A DNA stretch of 64,000 nucleotides from assembly GCA_902594855.1 (NCBI GenBank), contig CACJNS010000002.1, forward strand, positions 18,003 through 82,002, read 5' to 3'. The position numbers were made by a program, and so were the translations under genes. Positions 10,040-64,000 of the stretch are shown piece after piece. Positions within the stretch are counted from its first letter, which is position 1. Each line of letters starts with the position of its first letter. A model generated the notes under the pieces. It saw only the letters and a program-made list of their open reading frames with translations, was not told where the DNA came from and ran no database searches. The DNA is from an uncultured SAR86 cluster bacterium (GTDB lineage: Bacteria; Pseudomonadota; Gammaproteobacteria; Magnimaribacterales; AG-339-G14).

Positions 10040-11161
10040 ATGACAGAAAAAAAAGCATATTTATATCTAGATTCCGAAAGATTTTTTGAAGGTTTTTCCG
10101 TTGGGAAAAATGCTGATACTTGCGGAGAAGTCGTTTTTAATACTTCCATGTCTGGGTATCAGGAAATAATTTCCGATCCATCTTATACCGATCAAATTAT
10201 TAATTTTACTTACCCTCACATAGGTAACGTAGGAACTAATGATGATGATTTAGAGTCCGATTCAAACGGATGTAATGGGGTCATCATCAGAGATCCGCCA
10301 AAAATTACAAGTAATTGGAGAAAACAGGATGATTTATCAAACTTCCTAAAGACAAAAAATATTTCAGGTATTTATGGAATTGATACTAGAAAAGTCACTC
10401 GAATAATCAGAAACGAAGGTGCAAAAGTAGGTGCCATCGTTTCCGGCAAAGATCATAAAAAGAAAGCGCTTAAATTAATTGAAGAGTTTGTGCCTTTAGG
10501 TGGAAAAGATCTCGCCTCAGTTGTTTCAACGAAAAAAGTATACGAATGGAAAGAACCCTCTTGGAGGAAGGATTTCGATGATAATAATTTAAAAATAGTT
10601 GCGATCGATTTTGGAGTAAAGCACAACATTTTACGAATGCTTAAAGATAGAGGATTTCAGGTGATCGTGGTTCCAGCTAAAACAATTGCTGCAGAGATTA
10701 TTGCAATGAAGCCCGATGGAGTATTTCTTTCTAATGGACCTGGTGATCCTGAACCCTGCAAGTATGCAATTGAATGCATTAAGGAACTAAGGACAAAAAG
10801 AATTCCAATGTTCGGCATTTGTTTAGGCCATCAACTTTTAGGATTAGCTTTGGGAATGAAAACTATCAAAATGAAGTTTGGACATCATGGCGCTAACCAT
10901 CCAGTTAAAGACTTGGATTCAAATAGAGTTTTCATAACGAGCCAAAATCATGGATTTACCATTGATTCGAAATCAATTCCTGAGGATGTCAAAATTACAC
11001 ACCTGTCTTTATTTGATGAAACCATTCAAGGAATAGAAACATACGATAAAAGATGCTTCAGTTTCCAAGGACATCCCGAAGCCAGTCCCGGTCCCCAAGA
11101 AATACAAGAATTATTTGATAAATTTTTAACAGTAGTAAAAAGCAATGCCAAAAAGAAATGA
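10040..11161 (+). CDS. carA: carbamoyl-phosphate synthase small subunit
   Basis: [28 protein letters not shown] and [10 protein letters not shown] motifs. Confidence 0.98.
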
Positions 11162-17309: not shown

Positions 17310-18122
17310 ATGCCTTCTATATCTAGGAGCCTCATAAAAGAGTCTCCTAGAATAATGGGGGTAATAAATCTAACTACTGATTCATTTTCAGATGGTGGTC
17401 ATCTATTCTCTGGTAATAAAGTTGATTTATCGAAAGCTCATAGAAAAGTTGAAAAACTCATAAATGAAGGCGCCGATATTCTAGATTTTGGAGCCGAGTC
17501 TACAAGGCCAGGCTTCACTGAAATTCCTTCACAAGTCCAAATAGATAGATTGATACCGATACTAGAACAGATTAAGGACGAAGATATTTTGATCTCTGTT
17601 GATTCAAGGGATTATAAAGTTCTCTACGAAGCTTCTAAATTTGGAATGAAATTTATAAACGATGTATCAAAGAATATATCTCAAAAGAAGTTAAAGTTAG
17701 CAAAAGAAAAAGAACTTTTCATATGCACAACTCATCATGGAAATAAAACAAAAAAAACATCAAATATTCTTTTGGATGTAGATAACTTCTTTGAGGCTAA
17801 AGAAAAATCATATCTTTCGAAAGGCATAAATATTAAACAATGCTTTTTTGATCCCGGGTTTGGTTATGGGAAAACACCCCTGGAGAATATATTTATGATG
17901 ACTAATATAAATTTTTTCAAAAAAGAAAACAGGAAAATACTTACTGGCACTTCAAGGAAGAAATCTTTTGCAGATTTCTTTAAAGATACCTCAAAAACTA
18001 AACTATCAGCTAGCTTACTGAGTGGTATAATTTGTGCTCTTGGCGGGAGCAATATAATAAGAAGTCACGAAGTTAAACAACTTCGAGAGGAATTAGAAAA
18101 ATTAGGTATTTATGAGAGATAG
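17310..18122 (+). CDS. folP: dihydropteroate synthase
   Basis: NLTTDSFSDGG, GAESTRPG, DPGFG and SRK motifs; ftsH-folP-glmM order. Confidence 0.93.
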   Translation: MPSISRSLIKESPRIMGVINLTTDSFSDGGHLFSGNKVDLSKAHRKVEKLINEGADILDFGAESTRPGFTEIPSQVQIDRLIPILEQIKDEDILISVDSRDYKVLYEASKFGMKFINDVSKNISQKKLKLAKEKELFICTTHHGNKTKKTSNILLDVDNFFEAKEKSYLSKGINIKQCFFDPGFGYGKTPLENIFMMTNINFFKKENRKILTGTSRKKSFADFFKDTSKTKLSASLLSGIICALGGSNIIRSHEVKQLREELEKLGIYER

Positions 18123-57323: not shown

Positions 57324-58379
57324 TTAACCTTGCTTTACTCCGCTAAGATCTATTCTGAATTTTAAAGGATTAGAATAAAGAAAATTCTCTTTAATTTCAT
57401 ATTTACCAAGTAATCCAGAAAAATTAGAAGATCTGCCTCTAATTTTTGCTCCAAAGAAGAAAATATCAAAGCCAGCCGAAAAAGCAATTTTCTCGTTAAC
57501 ATTCAATTCAGGAATGATTTTTTCAAAGATATTCATTCTGTTTAATAATACTGGATACTCAAGGCCTTCAACTTTATTAAGTTCGCTTAAGCTTAATTCT
57601 GAATTCCAAACATCTAATGATTTAGGGTAAGTTAAAACCTCAGCATCAAAAATTAAATTATAGCGAATAGCAGGAATAATTCTTTTTGTTTCATTCGGTA
57701 AGGCATTGATAAATATTTTATCAATATCCTTTCTTTTTCGAGGAGAGAAGTTAATTTTTTCTTTTAAAACATTCCTCAAGGACCTTGCTCTTTCATTGCT
57801 TAAATTGATTTCAAAGTAATCAGCAATTTTTTGTTCGTAGTCCGAACTGTTCCTTAAAGACAAGGTATTTTCATTATTTTTTGAATTTCGATTTTTTCCA
57901 GTAATGAGAAGAGATTTTTCATCGATCTGGATAAACTCATTTTCACTATTTATATTTATCGATGTGAAGAGAGAATTTCTTGATAATCTTCTTTTGCACT
58001 TTCTGTAGAATTCTGAATTGATATCACTCACTAGTATTAAATTGAAACCCCTGGCTTTAATTATGCTGCAATCACTTTCTTCATTAAAAGCGATAAATGA
58101 GAGTTTCGACTTCATAGAATCTTCATTAGAAAAAAACCCAAACTCTATACCTTTCATGAAAGAAGAAATGAGTTTTTCATCAATCTCTTCCGAGAAGAAA
58201 ATATGATAAGAAGAAGAGAAGTTTTTATTTTTATAGAAATTTTCAACAAAAGACTGCGAAAAGTTACTATCGATGATTTGCTCTTTATCTAATAAAACTT
58301 TATCTTCCATATTCATAGAACAGTGAAATAGGAATACACTGATGATTAAAAAATAAACTTTTTTCAAATAGTCTTTCAT
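57324..58379 (-). CDS. shortened LpoA/LppC-family outer-membrane lipoprotein
   Basis: Lipobox-like LFHC; SPRKRKDIDKIFI...KRIIPAIRY resembles the LpoA C-domain; divergent from rsmI. Confidence 0.65.
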   Translation of the reverse strand: MKDYLKKVYFLIISVFLFHCSMNMEDKVLLDKEQIIDSNFSQSFVENFYKNKNFSSSYHIFFSEEIDEKLISSFMKGIEFGFFSNEDSMKSKLSFIAFNEESDCSIIKARGFNLILVSDINSEFYRKCKRRLSRNSLFTSININSENEFIQIDEKSLLITGKNRNSKNNENTLSLRNSSDYEQKIADYFEINLSNERARSLRNVLKEKINFSPRKRKDIDKIFINALPNETKRIIPAIRYNLIFDAEVLTYPKSLDVWNSELSLSELNKVEGLEYPVLLNRMNIFEKIIPELNVNEKIAFSAGFDIFFFGAKIRGRSSNFSGLLGKYEIKENFLYSNPLKFRIDLSGVKQG

Positions 58380-59219: not shown

Positions 59220-59243
59220 GTCCAAATACTTATAATTAGCATC

Positions 59244-59574
59244 GAGCTGACCGGGTAATCGCTGTCAAATAGATAGAGGAAAGTCCGGGCTCCATAGAGA
59301 ATGATGCCAGATAACATCTGGGTGCTGCGAAGTAACGGATAGTGCAACAGAAAATAAACCGCCTTGTGTTAAAAGGTAAGGGTGAAAAGGTGCGGTAAGA
59401 GCGCACCAGACTTTTGGTAACAAAAGTCGTTGGCAAACCCCATCAGGAGCAAGACCAAATAGAGACCTGCTAATGTTTCTCGCATTAGGTCAGGGTAGGT
59501 TGCTAGAGGTTTATGGCAACATAAATCCTAGAGGAATGATTACCAATTACAGAACCCGGCTTATAGGTCAGCTC
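59244..59574 (+). ncRNA. rnpB: RNase P RNA, bacterial type A
   Basis: GAGGAAAGTCCGGGCTCC, AGTGCAACAGAAA, GGTAAGGGTGAAA, GAGCAAGACCAAATAG and ACAGAACCCGGCTTA; P1 is GAGCTGACC/GGTCAGCTC. Confidence 0.98.
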
Positions 59575-59620
59575 ACATAATAAATATCCTTAAAACCCTT
59601 ATATTTTGGGACTAAACCTC

Positions 59621-59697: not shown

Positions 59698-60180
59698 TTG
59701 ATGGCTATAGGACTTTATGGATACAGTAGTTTGGCATTGGATTCTAAAGGACGAATTGCAATGCCAGCAAAGTATAAAGAAGCTTTAAAAGAAGTTTCAG
59801 AGGGTTCTTTGGTCATTACTAGGGACCCACAATATCCTTCCTTAAGAATCTATCCAGGCAGTTTATGGAAAACCATATCGAAAGCTTTTGAAAACTTATC
59901 TGGCCTAGATTCAAAAATTAGATCTATTCAGTGGAATTTTCTTGGATATGCAAATTTAATTGATTTTGAAGTCAATGATCGGATGCAAATACTTATTCCT
60001 CAAAGCTTAAGAGATTACGCTCAATTAAAAGTTAAAGAAAAAGTATCTTTGATTGGTATGGGTCAGAAATTTGAAGTATGGAATGAAAAAAATTGGCTTG
60101 CAAAAGAGAAAGGTCAACAAATTCAAGGTGAAAAATTAGATATCGACTTACCTTCTAACGTCCAGGAGATCCCTTTTTAG
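59698..60180 (+). CDS. mraZ: division/cell-wall cluster transcriptional repressor MraZ
   Basis: LDSKGRIAMP, ILIPQSLRDYAQL and FEVW motifs; start TTG 59698 or ATG 59701. Confidence 0.92.
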   Translation: MMAIGLYGYSSLALDSKGRIAMPAKYKEALKEVSEGSLVITRDPQYPSLRIYPGSLWKTISKAFENLSGLDSKIRSIQWNFLGYANLIDFEVNDRMQILIPQSLRDYAQLKVKEKVSLIGMGQKFEVWNEKNWLAKEKGQQIQGEKLDIDLPSNVQEIPF

Positions 60181-60184
60181 CATC

Positions 60185-61039
60185 ATGTTCACTCATCAGC
60201 CAGTAATGATCAACGAAACTATTAAAAATTTAGTTCATGATCCTGCCGGCACTTATTTAGATTGTACTTTTGGCTTAGGGGGACATTCAAAAAAGATTTT
60301 AGAAAACCTTAACGATAATGGCCGATTAATTGCAATAGACAGAGACAAAGAAACTGTCTTGTATTCACAAAAAATAAAAGACAAAAGATTTCATTTTAAA
60401 AATCTAAATTTTTCAAAAATTGAAAGTTTAGATACAAGACTAGACGGTATCTTTTTTGATCTAGGGAATTCTTCTATGCAATTAGATGATCCAGAAAGAG
60501 GATTTAGCTTTCAAAAGGATGGTCCTCTTGATATGAGAATGAACAAAGAAGAGGAAATTACAGCAGAACAATGGATAAATACTGCAACAGAGAAAGAAAT
60601 AAGTGACGTCTTATTTCATTTGGGCGAAGAGCGAAAATCTAGGTTTTATGCCAGGAAAATTGTTGAATCAAGAAAAAAGACCAAGTTTAAAAGCACAGCA
60701 CAGCTTTCTTTATTTATTCAGAAATATAGCAGTTCACAAAAGCGTCATCCAGCAACTAATGTATTCAGAGCAATAAGAATGCATATAAATAATGAAATTG
60801 AAGAGATGATCAATGGATTTAAATCAGCAGCTTGCCTACTCAAGCAAAATGGAAAATTAATCATCATAAGCTTTCATTCCATAGAAGATAGAATAGCTAA
60901 AAACTTTCTCAGATCAGAGGAAGCAAAAAATCTTAATCTTAAAAAGCAAGGAAAGCCTATTAAGCCAACAAATAATGAAATTAAGTCTAATCCGAGATCA
61001 AGGAGCGCAATAATGAGAATTGCGATAAAAAATGTTTAA
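60185..61039 (+). CDS. rsmH: 16S rRNA C1402 N4-methyltransferase
   Basis: HQPVM, DCTFGLGGHS, QLDDPERGFSF, PLDMRM, SFHSIEDR and NPRSRSA motifs. Confidence 0.97.
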   Translation: MFTHQPVMINETIKNLVHDPAGTYLDCTFGLGGHSKKILENLNDNGRLIAIDRDKETVLYSQKIKDKRFHFKNLNFSKIESLDTRLDGIFFDLGNSSMQLDDPERGFSFQKDGPLDMRMNKEEEITAEQWINTATEKEISDVLFHLGEERKSRFYARKIVESRKKTKFKSTAQLSLFIQKYSSSQKRHPATNVFRAIRMHINNEIEEMINGFKSAACLLKQNGKLIIISFHSIEDRIAKNFLRSEEAKNLNLKKQGKPIKPTNNEIKSNPRSRSAIMRIAIKNV

Positions 61040-61310
61040 TCAAATGATATTGATATTTATTTTAGGATCTCTGATTTCTGCTTTTTTTAGTTCCTGCTTA
61101 GTTTTGAACAAGAATGCTAGTTACAAGCAATTAGTCTCAGAAAAGTATCTTTTAAACGACTATAAGTCAAAACTAGATGAGGAATCAGTTTATCTCAAGA
61201 ATAAGATATTAAATCTAACTTCTCACAATTCAGTAAAGGAAAAAACGGTTGACGAATATGGAATGATTTTGCCTGAATCCGTTCTTTTGATTCAAGGAGC
61301 AGAAAAGTGA
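61032..61310 (+). CDS. ftsL: probable cell division protein FtsL
   Basis: Single TM, coiled coil and YGMILP tail; immediately follows rsmH. Confidence 0.7.
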   Translation: MFNQMILIFILGSLISAFFSSCLVLNKNASYKQLVSEKYLLNDYKSKLDEESVYLKNKILNLTSHNSVKEKTVDEYGMILPESVLLIQGAEK

Positions 61311-61858
61311 AATTCTTAACTTTCATTGTAATGATTTTTTCTTCAACCTTTGTTTTATCCGAAGTTTTTGAAGACCCAAAACCTTTGTTTTCAAAACATA
61401 ATCCTAACTTTGTTGAATCATCTAAGGAAGTCAATTCTTGGCCAATAAAAAGATTGCATGTGAAAGAATTTCAACCTCTTGCTTTTTGGGGAAAAGACCA
61501 GATACTGACCCAATCTGGTCGCCTCCTCAAATTTAAAACAAAAGAAAATTTGAAGTTAGTTAATATTGAAGCAAACAGAAATAATATTGACTTTGTCTTA
61601 AGGTATTTTTTTGAGCTAAATCAAATTTTGAAAGGATCTAACTTGGTTCTTAATAGAATTCTAATTGAAGAGTTTGATTTAATGACCTTAGAGGATAATT
61701 CCGGCATAAGGTTTCACATGAATAAATCAAAAATAGAAATTCAATTAGAAAACCTTAAAACATTCCTGAAGAGCGAATACTTTAACAACATAAAAGATAC
61801 CTTTTCATATTTAGATTTAAGGTATCAAAACAAAGGAGCAATTGGGTTAAGGGATTAA
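61307..61858 (+). CDS. ftsQ: truncated FtsQ/DivIB (beta domain, most of POTRA missing; GTG start)
   Basis: WPIKRLHVKEFQPLAFW...SGRL and C-terminal YLDLRYQNKGAIG; directly upstream of ftsA. Confidence 0.8.
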   Translation: MKFLTFIVMIFSSTFVLSEVFEDPKPLFSKHNPNFVESSKEVNSWPIKRLHVKEFQPLAFWGKDQILTQSGRLLKFKTKENLKLVNIEANRNNIDFVLRYFFELNQILKGSNLVLNRILIEEFDLMTLEDNSGIRFHMNKSKIEIQLENLKTFLKSEYFNNIKDTFSYLDLRYQNKGAIGLRD

Positions 61859-61859
61859 T

Positions 61860-63089
61860 ATGGCCAGCAACGGATCAAATAACATCAGAGTAGGTATTGA
61901 CATAGGCACCTCGAAAGTCGTGTGTCTAATCGCTGAATATGTTGATCACGAATTACGAGTTATCGGCTTAGGAAGCCAAACTTCTCAAGGTTTAAAAAAC
62001 GGTGTGATTGTTGATATTGAATCAACTGTATCCGCAATAGAATCCGCGGTAAATGATGCAGAATTGATGTCTGGAAAACAAGTTACATCAGCTTTTGTAG
62101 GTATAAGTGGAGGTCATATAAATGGTTTAAATTCTGAAGGTGTTGTAGGTATTAAAGATAAAAAAGTCAAAGTTAGTGATGTTGATAGAGTCATCACTGC
62201 CGCACAAGCATATGCTATTCCAGATGACTCTCAATTGCTTCATGTTCTGCCAAGAGACTACATTATTGATCAACAAAATGGCATTAAAGAACCTCTTGGA
62301 ATGGCTGGCGTCAGACTGGAGACCAAAGTTCATTTAGTCACCTGTAACAGGAACTCTGCTCAAAACATATCCTCTTGTATGAAAGCTTGTGGTATTACTG
62401 TTGAAGGATTTGTTTTGGAGCAACTAGCGTCAAGTTACTCCGTCCTATCAGAAGATGAAAAAGAGCTGGGAACGTGTTTAATTGACATGGGCGGTGGAAC
62501 TTCAGACGTTGCAGTTTTTCAAAATGGAGCGATAAGTCATACAGCTAATATTCCAACTTCAGGCGATCATATTACTAAAGACATTGCTAGAGCGCTTCAA
62601 ACTCCAAGTATGCAAGCAGAAGAACTTAAGAAGAAGTATGGCTGTGCTTCAAGCTCGATAATTCATGAGAATGAAACAATTGAGGTTCCAGGTATGGCAG
62701 GAAGAAAAAATAAAATTTTCTCAAGAATGGCCCTAGCCAGTGTAATAGAGCAAAGGTATTTGGATATTTTTGGCTTAATAAAACAAAAACTTAACTTATC
62801 TTCTTTAGAAAATAATATTCCCGCTGGGATTGTAATCACAGGTGGAACATCCAGAATGGAAGGAGTAGCTCAATTAGCAGAGGAAGTTTTTAATGCTCCT
62901 GTTCGTATTGGTTCGCCATCAGGATTGATAGGATTGAGCGATATTTTAAGGAATCCAATATATGCAACTGCTGTAGGGTTGGTTTTATATAGCCAGAAAT
63001 CACAAGAAGAAGACCATATGAACTATCTGTTCATGAAAGATAAGAACATTTTTAACAAAGCTTTTAGATGGATCCAAAACAATTTCTAA
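61860..63089 (+). CDS. ftsA: cell division protein FtsA
   Basis: GIDIGTSKV, IDMGGGTSD and VITGGTSRMEG motifs, C-terminal amphipathic helix. Confidence 0.98.
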   Translation: MASNGSNNIRVGIDIGTSKVVCLIAEYVDHELRVIGLGSQTSQGLKNGVIVDIESTVSAIESAVNDAELMSGKQVTSAFVGISGGHINGLNSEGVVGIKDKKVKVSDVDRVITAAQAYAIPDDSQLLHVLPRDYIIDQQNGIKEPLGMAGVRLETKVHLVTCNRNSAQNISSCMKACGITVEGFVLEQLASSYSVLSEDEKELGTCLIDMGGGTSDVAVFQNGAISHTANIPTSGDHITKDIARALQTPSMQAEELKKKYGCASSSIIHENETIEVPGMAGRKNKIFSRMALASVIEQRYLDIFGLIKQKLNLSSLENNIPAGIVITGGTSRMEGVAQLAEEVFNAPVRIGSPSGLIGLSDILRNPIYATAVGLVLYSQKSQEEDHMNYLFMKDKNIFNKAFRWIQNNF

Positions 63090-63107: not shown

Positions 63108-64000
63108 ATGAACTGGACCGTTGTAGAAAATGAAACTAAATCATCTGCTCTTATAAGAGTAGTTGGAGTAGGTGGAGCTGGAGGAAACGCAGTGAACCAT
63201 ATGGTTGAAAGCGGTATCGAAGGCGTGCAAATGATTTGTGCTAATACAGATGAGCAAGCGCTTGATACCAACTTAGCAGAATTAAAAATTACTCTTGGGA
63301 CTGGTATTTCGAATGGTCTTGGAGCAGGAGGGAAACCTGAGGTTGGAAGAGATGCTGCTCTTGATGATCTTGAAAGAATTAAAACCTTGCTTGAGGGTTC
63401 AGATATGGTTTTTGTTGCAGCAGGAATGGGTGGCGGTACTGGAACTGGTGCAGCCCCAATTGTTGCTAGAGCTGCTAAAGAAATAGGTGCTTTGACAGTT
63501 GCAGTAGTCACCAAGCCATTAGAGCTTGAAATGAGAGATCAAATTGCAGATGCTGGTTTAAAAGAACTTACTGATGAAGTTGATTCACTAATCGCAATCC
63601 CTAACCAAAAATTATTGGAAGTTCTTGGAAGAGAACATAGTCTTCTTGATGCCTTCAAGCAAGCAAACGATGTTTTACTTGGAGCTGTTAGAGGTATATC
63701 AGATATCATCACACAAACCGGGCTCGTAAATGTTGATTTTCAAGATGTTAAAACAGTAATGTCAGAAAAAGGAACGGCTATGATGGGAACGGGAATTGCA
63801 AATGGGCCAAGCAGGGCAAAAGAGGCAGCCTCCGCAGCTGTAGGAAGTCCACTATTAGAAGATATTAATCTAGAAAACGCAAAAGGAGTTCTTGTTAATA
63901 TCACAGCTGGGCCAGATATGAAAACGGGTGAAATTGAGGAAGTTCTCGCCTTGGTAAGAGAATTTGCTGCTCAAGATGCAACAATCATACACGGTGTGGC
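63108..64000 (+). CDS. ftsZ: cell division protein FtsZ (runs off the window end)
   Basis: Manual translation from ATG 63108: VGVGGAGGNAVNHM, GMGGGTGTGAAP and NVDFQDV; AGGAGG Shine-Dalgarno. Confidence 0.98.
   Translation, partial: MNWTVVENETKSSALIRVVGVGGAGGNAVNHMVESGIEGVQMICANTDEQALDTNLAELKITLGTGISNGLGAGGKPEVGRDAALDDLERIKTLLEGSDMVFVAAGMGGGTGTGAAPIVARAAKEIGALTVAVVTKPLELEMRDQIADAGLKELTDEVDSLIAIPNQKLLEVLGREHSLLDAFKQANDVLLGAVRGISDIITQTGLVNVDFQDVKTVMSEKGTAMMGTGIANGPSRAKEAASAAVGSPLLEDINLENAKGVLVNITAGPDMKTGEIEEVLALVREFAAQDATIIHGV

Follow-up and report, generated by a model that had tools for sequence, protein, structure and literature searches.

A naturally shortened FtsQ in the marine SAR86 cluster keeps the beta domain and very probably the clamp on FtsB

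How much of FtsQ, a protein of cell division, can a bacterium do without? The prevailing view holds FtsQ to be universally a bitopic hub protein that carries a POTRA domain; it is also a candidate antibiotic target, and domain-deletion work in Escherichia coli, where the protein has 276 amino acids (aa) and a 24-aa cytoplasmic tail, has disputed the purpose of its tail, transmembrane (TM) segment and POTRA domain. The question is raised by a 183-aa ftsQ gene (61307..61858, + strand, as are all features of the gene given below) in a 64,000-nucleotide stretch of DNA, here called the window, from an uncultured member of the SAR86 cluster, which is among the most abundant bacterial groups of the surface ocean. 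The window comprises positions 18,003 to 82,002 of contig CACJNS010000002.1 of GenBank assembly GCA_902594855.1, a 15-contig draft genome of 1.23 Mb with ~35% G+C and 94% completeness. We consider it very probable that the gene encodes a minimal FtsQ that is functional and retains the clamp on its partner FtsB. The fuller account that best explains the data, favoured with moderate confidence, is a working SAR86 FtsQ cut to its essential core, which would be exported by Sec, freed of its signal sequence, clamped by FtsB and docked by FtsK. For comparison, 154 SAR86 genomes, mostly drafts, were searched with a profile and the loci were then read; their families are referred to as f1 to f4, and the genera of f1 as g1 (to which the window belongs), g2, g3 and g4.

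Domain and structure comparisons both place the protein among FtsQs. The Pfam domain FtsQ_DivIB_C (PF03799) was matched over residues 59–172 (24 bits, cut-off 21), the NCBIfam model of E. coli FtsQ aligned residues 45–181 to E. coli residues 115–256, and a profile of SAR86 homologues matched all solved FtsQ structures in a PDB profile search (E ~1e-24). From 36 SAR86 sequences, AlphaFold2 gave a model with a mean predicted local distance difference test score (pLDDT) of 87.5 and a predicted template modelling score (pTM) of 0.76, and the model's ten best Foldseek matches in the PDB were all FtsQ. The closest was Pseudomonas aeruginosa FtsQ (8bh1_C), with a TM-score of 0.87 and a root-mean-square deviation of 2.0 Å over 132 residues. 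The E. coli FtsQ structures (2VH1, 6H9N/6H9O, 5Z2W, 8HHF) share the same beta-domain fold (Foldseek E ~1e-10 to 1e-11). The beta domain is complete in the model, with pLDDT mostly >90 (61469..61855, aa 55–183).

The POTRA domain is incomplete. POTRA_1 (PF08478) gave no match in the window FtsQ even at E<=1 and was not found elsewhere in the 1.23-Mb genome, where the best match had an E-value of 0.25, and AlphaFold2 predicted no POTRA fold in residues 20–45. What is left are the last two strands, b2 (aa 36–44) and b3 (aa 47–54), on either side of a WP junction (aa 45–46), together spanning 61412..61468 (aa 36–54) according to the modelled secondary structure and the E. coli alignment. In that alignment b2 corresponds to E. 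coli residues 106–114, b3 to 117–125, W45-P46 to W115-P116, and a YLDLRY motif near the C-terminus to Y243–Y248. The preliminary description of this locus, made from the sequence, had proposed an FtsQ without its cytoplasmic tail and most of its POTRA domain, with a WP junction at residue 45 and a beta domain ending in YLDLRY. Pfam, the structural model and the N-terminal sequence bear this out and make it more precise: b1, a1 and a2 (~E. coli residues 55–102) are deleted and the b2-b3 hairpin stays.

Upstream of the hairpin, the model contains a short helix (aa 4–11) and a low-confidence coil (aa 12–32). Residues 19–35 (61361..61411, EVFEDPKPLFSKHNPNF) form a linker that is predicted to be disordered (pLDDT ~50–55) and is strongly conserved. 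Among 13 distinct alleles from the window's genus, the ratio of non-synonymous to synonymous substitution rates (dN/dS) was 0.08 over aa 19–44, which comprise the linker and the first hairpin strand and are under the strongest purifying selection in the gene. Predicted disorder within the most conserved stretch of the gene could mean that the linker is a short linear motif for binding.

Compared with E. coli FtsQ, the window protein has the same Y243–W256 motif (including Y248, R247, D245 and A253), WP junction and b2-b3 strands, and its gene likewise lies directly upstream of ftsA. It differs in having no 24-aa tail, in a 16-aa signal-like segment in place of the 25-aa TM segment, in the deletion of POTRA b1-a1-a2, in the absence of a C-terminal Gln-rich tail and in the position of the gene after ftsL rather than ddl. 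It is an FtsQ by synteny, fold and partner, and lacks two textbook features of the family, a complete POTRA domain and a bitopic topology. In the literature searched, we found no account of an FtsQ that is a lipoprotein, is secreted or lacks POTRA, nor of any SAR86 FtsQ, although an earlier description is still possible.

The part of FtsQ that is retained is the part that contacts FtsB. In E. coli, residues 64–87 of FtsB are both required and sufficient to bind FtsQ, and FtsQ residues Y248 and A253 have a role in FtsB binding (PMC6134095). The corresponding patch of the window FtsQ (YLDLRYQNKGAIGL, 61808..61849, aa 168–181) aligns with E. coli Y243–W256. Y173, R172, D170 and A178 correspond to E. 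coli Y248, R247, D245 and A253, respectively; all four are conserved, and two of them, D170 and R172, do not vary across SAR86. The FtsB of the same genome (97 aa, at 10927–11220 of contig C9, in the usual eno-ftsB-ispD context) has a cytoplasmic part of 6 aa and a C-terminus, ...GLARSERGLIKKGEQLVEFK, that resembles the FtsQ-binding segment of E. coli FtsB. From this conservation we infer that the window FtsQ binds FtsB. Through the patch centred on Y173, the beta domain would clamp FtsB at its C-terminal helix-loop-strand, in model organisms the sole contact that keeps FtsQ in the FtsWIQLB core complex.

The partners in genus g2, which lacks ftsQ, point in the same direction. There FtsB is only 74–77 aa long and ends before the segment EALEGxARxxLGLIKxGE..F, which is kept by every other SAR86 FtsB, including those of g1, g3 and g4. 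FtsL is also shorter in g2 (73–74 aa vs 89–96 aa). That the FtsB tail is gone only where ftsQ is gone shows independently that g2 has truly lost ftsQ, and indicates that in g1, g3 and g4 the truncated FtsQs still use the FtsB clamp. In the P. aeruginosa FtsWIQBL complex, the beta domain and FtsB provide the only tether of FtsQ, and the POTRA domain and TM segment of the protein are flexible (bioRxiv 10.1101/2022.11.21.517367), which suggests that both are dispensable for the core complex. The ordered, bound part of FtsQ in that cryo-EM structure (8BH1 chain C) is approximately what the SAR86 protein retains. The POTRA domain and TM segment that are still present and flexible in P. aeruginosa have been removed genetically in the SAR86 protein.

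A second contact may also have survived. AlphaFold2 and EVcouplings placed the periplasmic loop of FtsK (W51–H57 in E. coli) on strand b2 of the POTRA domain (V109–K113) (bioRxiv 10.1101/2022.11.21.517367). The window FtsQ retains this predicted FtsK-docking strand, and the edge of the domain that faces FtsK seems to have escaped the deletion. FtsK of g1 (787 aa) keeps a four-TM N-terminal domain and has AAWTTQN in its first periplasmic loop. The loop motif W-x-[ST]-Q was present in g1 (4/4) and f2 (5/6), and was absent throughout the other f1 genera (15/15; g2, 4/4; g3, 7/7; g4, 4/4). The shortened FtsQs of g3 and g4 share with the window protein the family, gene order, signal-like N-terminus and DLR[YH] motif, but lack the b2-b3 hairpin, and their FtsK loops are without W-x-T-Q. 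The retained b2 strand would probably still dock the first periplasmic loop of FtsK, and FtsK-mediated recruitment may be conserved in g1, with its loss confined to the sister genera. The preliminary description had supposed that the protein is recruited differently, which is unnecessary for g1, where strand b2, the FtsK N-terminal domain and the W-x-T-Q motif are all kept. Two observations weigh against docking by FtsK. The correlation amounts to approximately one phylogenetic contrast, between g1 and the clade g3+(g4,g2) (bootstrap 87), and the single f3 genome that was examined combines a POTRA domain (a full-length profile match) with an FtsK loop lacking the motif. Because g2, g3 and g4 form one clade and this f3 genome lacks the motif, the FtsK evidence is at most suggestive.

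The relatives place the window protein within a graded reduction. Families f3 and f4 have FtsQs of ~205–230 aa with a POTRA-length aligned region and the gene order murC-ddl-ftsQ-ftsA. Their N-termini are short and hydrophobic, with a lipobox in seven f3 proteins (loci L113, L115, L111, L109, L110, L105 and L116) and otherwise mostly AxA-like ends (ambiguous in f4). In f2, FtsQ is ~220 aa long with a complete b-a-a-b-b POTRA domain (AlphaFold2 pLDDT 87), and all 25 of 25 proteins have a lipobox of the form L-[AGS]-[GAS]-C with the Cys at position 15–29 (loci L015–L021 and L060–L078); the gene order is the derived ftsL-ftsQ-ftsA. These f2 proteins are orthologues that share this gene order, the beta domain and the lack of a cytoplasmic tail with the window FtsQ, which differs in having neither an N-terminal Cys nor b1-a1-a2. 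The derived order is also found in g1, with its 183-aa FtsQ, signal-like N-terminus and b2-b3 hairpin only, and in g3 and g4, where FtsQ is 155–166 aa long, the signal-like N-terminus ends in AxA- or xxS-type sites, and the mature protein would start at the beta domain without any POTRA. In g2, ftsQ was found in none of five genomes, one of them a closed contig that is 97% complete, and ftsL abuts ftsA (loci L027–L029 of genomes G019, G016 and G022, and L126 and L128–L130). Genus g2 is a natural example of a gammaproteobacterial divisome without FtsQ.

Any cytoplasmic tail in a SAR86 FtsQ amounts to a few residues at most, and none of the relatives has an E. coli-type full-length protein, which combines a true cytoplasmic tail with a long TM segment. 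Relatives can be said to have a longer gene only weakly, in that other families keep the POTRA domain. In a tree of MraZ and RsmH rooted on f2, g1 was sister to g3+(g4,g2) (bootstraps 87 and 93), and the most economical history is partial deletion of the POTRA domain, followed by its total deletion and then by loss of ftsQ. Across the order, a TM anchor would have been replaced by a signal or lipoprotein anchor, and the POTRA domain would have been first partly and then fully deleted before ftsQ was lost. A second, independent case in which ftsQ is missing from its usual place was seen in an f4 genome (locus L039 of G033), where only ~70 nt separate ddl and ftsA.

In the f2 and f3 lipobox sequences that were read, the residue at position +2 is S, T or A and never D, and by the Lol rules of E. 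coli the lipobox FtsQs would be sorted to the outer membrane. A search of 1.84 billion representative proteins returned 6,663 matches, of which the ~50 best were SAR86-like, many with a lipobox, and the FtsQs beyond these had ordinary K/R-rich tails and TM segments of 17–26 aa. One protein, P0153 (256 aa, ...VMLGCNF...), is a possible case of a lipobox FtsQ from outside SAR86.

Is the N-terminus of the window FtsQ a cleaved signal or a membrane anchor? Residues 1–18 (MKFLTFIVMIFSSTFVLS, 61307..61360) read as a Sec-type signal sequence with no cytoplasmic tail and no lipobox Cys. MK is followed by 16 residues without charged residues or N, Q or H, and then by S-E-V-F-E-D. A rules-based reading gives an n-region of K2, a hydrophobic region of 15–16 aa (F3–L17), V16 at position −3 and S18 at position −1, in line with the pattern expected of type I signal peptides (a positive n-region, 7–15 hydrophobic residues, and small or neutral residues at −3 and −1). 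There is no Cys within aa 1–40, and the lipobox pattern [LVI][ASTVI][GAS]C is absent. An N-in bitopic topology would call for a tail and a TM helix of at least ~20 aa; only two residues precede the 16-aa segment, so the tail is certainly absent. The equivalent segment free of charged, N, Q and H residues is 25 aa in the E. coli TM, and its median length in SAR86 FtsQs is 15 aa.

Cleavage by signal peptidase I (SPase I) after S18 is, on balance, probable, given the short hydrophobic region, the acidic residues immediately after it, the short modelled helix and the lipoprotein or AxA-type N-termini of relatives. In the SAR86 relatives checked, N-termini carry lipoboxes or are short and hydrophobic with mostly SPase-I-like small-residue ends, and N-terminal processing therefore appears to be the rule in the order. 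The Sec signal would export FtsQ, and SPase I would cut after V-L-S18 to create a mature N-terminus at E19, which would yield the semi-tryptic peptide EVFEDPKPLFSK. The cleaved FtsQ would be a periplasmic protein without a membrane span or cytoplasmic part. It would consist of a conserved, flexible stretch of 17 aa, the final two strands of what was once the POTRA domain and the full beta domain, and would be held at the divisome by the C-terminal strand of FtsB, perhaps together with the FtsK loop. The suggestion that the N-terminus might be cleavable and FtsQ soluble, which the preliminary description had offered as a secondary idea, gains support from the 25 f2 lipoboxes and from the AxA or xxS ends of the POTRA-less f1 relatives checked, and the cleavage step itself is still a prediction.

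The hydrophobic segment could also be an uncleaved anchor, which counts against a soluble protein and was the primary picture of the preliminary description. FtsQ would then be a tail-less type-II signal-anchor protein of the inner membrane, with the hairpin and beta domain close to the membrane; we regard this as possible but the less probable outcome. Sixteen residues are about the minimum for a TM helix, the TM segment of FtsB in the same genome is comparably short, Val/Leu at −3 with Ser at −1 makes a weaker site than the AxA of g3, and canonical FtsQ is membrane-anchored. Against an anchor, the modelled helix covers only eight residues before the low-confidence coil begins, the segment is bounded by E19 and E22, and the pattern in relatives favours processing (f4 being ambiguous). 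The region is also the fastest-evolving portion of the gene, with a dN/dS of 0.41 over aa 1–18 compared with 0.16 over the beta domain.

A different objection is that the gene is a remnant decaying towards loss, with no further role in division. The order does tolerate its absence: ftsQ has already been lost in g2, and at least one f4 genome lacks it between ddl and ftsA, where it usually lies. The window gene itself shows none of the marks of decay. Its overall dN/dS is 0.17 and falls to 0.08 in the linker, all 26 of the 26 g1 copies examined encode 183 aa without a single stop or frameshift, the fold is confidently predicted, and the FtsB-binding residues are conserved, as is the FtsB tail that was removed where FtsQ is truly gone. 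The window ftsQ is a genuine gene under selection and not a pseudogene, and continued decay is a very improbable explanation. An annotation or assembly artefact that hides a longer gene (because of a frameshift, a misplaced start or a split) is less probable still, because, although the genome is a 15-contig draft, the GTG start has an ideally placed Shine-Dalgarno site (AAGGAG, 61294..61299, 7 nt upstream), an in-frame stop lies 10 codons upstream with the DNA between coding for the C-terminus of FtsL in another frame, and the same architecture recurs in independent single-cell genomes and metagenome proteins. With the frame closed and occupied by ftsL, no longer FtsQ N-terminus is possible, and with no POTRA_1 encoded anywhere in the genome a split or relocated N-terminal half with the TM segment and POTRA domain is ruled out as well. 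Pseudogene and artefact explanations are essentially excluded. Two entries of public collections, P0011 (271 aa) and P0053 (188 aa), are chimeric open reading frames in which unrelated N-termini are fused to the window FtsQ.

SAR86 can be seen as a natural FtsQ deletion series under selection, in which the TM segment gave way to a lipobox or signal, the POTRA domain was trimmed to its FtsK-facing hairpin and then removed, and finally FtsQ itself disappeared. These steps among relatives, from a lipid-anchored FtsQ to none, indicate which parts of the protein bacteria can spare. The partners change in step, since the FtsB tail is lost only with FtsQ and the FtsK loop motif is lost with strand b2. 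More tentatively, we propose that SAR86 FtsQ is no longer an integral membrane protein but a lipoprotein in f2 (perhaps of the outer membrane) and a free periplasmic protein in f1. Under this broader proposal, which has some plausibility but goes further than the rest, FtsB and FtsK would recruit FtsQ instead of FtsQ recruiting FtsLB, FtsQLB would have almost no cytoplasmic mass, and FtsQ would be so dispensable that one genus has lost it along with the FtsB tail. SAR86 would then have a natural minimal divisome in which the clamp between the beta domain and FtsB is the sole indispensable function of FtsQ. The series makes it testable which contacts of FtsQ are essential and how an FtsQLB complex without cytoplasmic parts reaches the Z-ring. 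The SAR86 FtsQs also offer compact constructs for structural work, and annotation pipelines should take into account that short or POTRA-less FtsQs are real genes.

The gene lies in the cluster of division and cell wall genes (dcw), whose head in the window is mraZ-rsmH (59698..61039). The genes in the window, all on the + strand, are mraZ (59698–60180, Pfam MraZ), rsmH (60185–61039, Pfam Methyltransf_5), ftsL (61032..61310, 92 aa), ftsQ, ftsA (61860–63089) and ftsZ, which starts at 63108 and runs off the window. The ftsL open reading frame has weak Pfam and TIGR FtsL matches, and its assignment is supported by its position after rsmH. Its stop codon overlaps the ftsQ start in the sequence GTGA, and 1 nt separates the ftsQ stop from the ftsA start, so that ftsQ lies directly upstream of ftsA-ftsZ. 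The full order is mraZ-rsmH-ftsL-ftsQ-ftsA-ftsZ-ftsI-murE-murF-mraY-murD-ftsW-murG, after which the contig ends (G000:C2 to 90978); murC-ddl open contig C9 (C9:1-2159) and are followed by rpsF. The idea that ten peptidoglycan genes are absent was refuted, as ftsI to murG directly follow ftsZ beyond the window and murC-ddl are on C9. The cluster is rearranged and not collapsed: the ftsQAZ block, which used to follow ddl, now sits between ftsL and ftsI. Families f1 and f2 share the ftsL-ftsQ-ftsA junction diagnostic of this shift, and f3 and f4 keep murC-ddl-ftsQ-ftsA.

In E. coli, a 37-aa cytoplasmic tail of FtsL recruits FtsW. The window FtsL has only four residues (MFNQ) ahead of its TM segment, and with 6 aa in FtsB and none in FtsQ the SAR86 FtsQLB is virtually without a cytoplasmic part. 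Upstream of the cluster, a class A RNase P RNA (324 bits) was found at window positions 59243–59579, between rsmI and mraZ. An LpoA-like protein of 351 aa is encoded at 57324–58379 (− strand), with its start 3 nt from the divergent start of rsmI; it matches only positions 375–489 of the 563-position LppC model, with an E-value of 8e-7, just under the cut-off.

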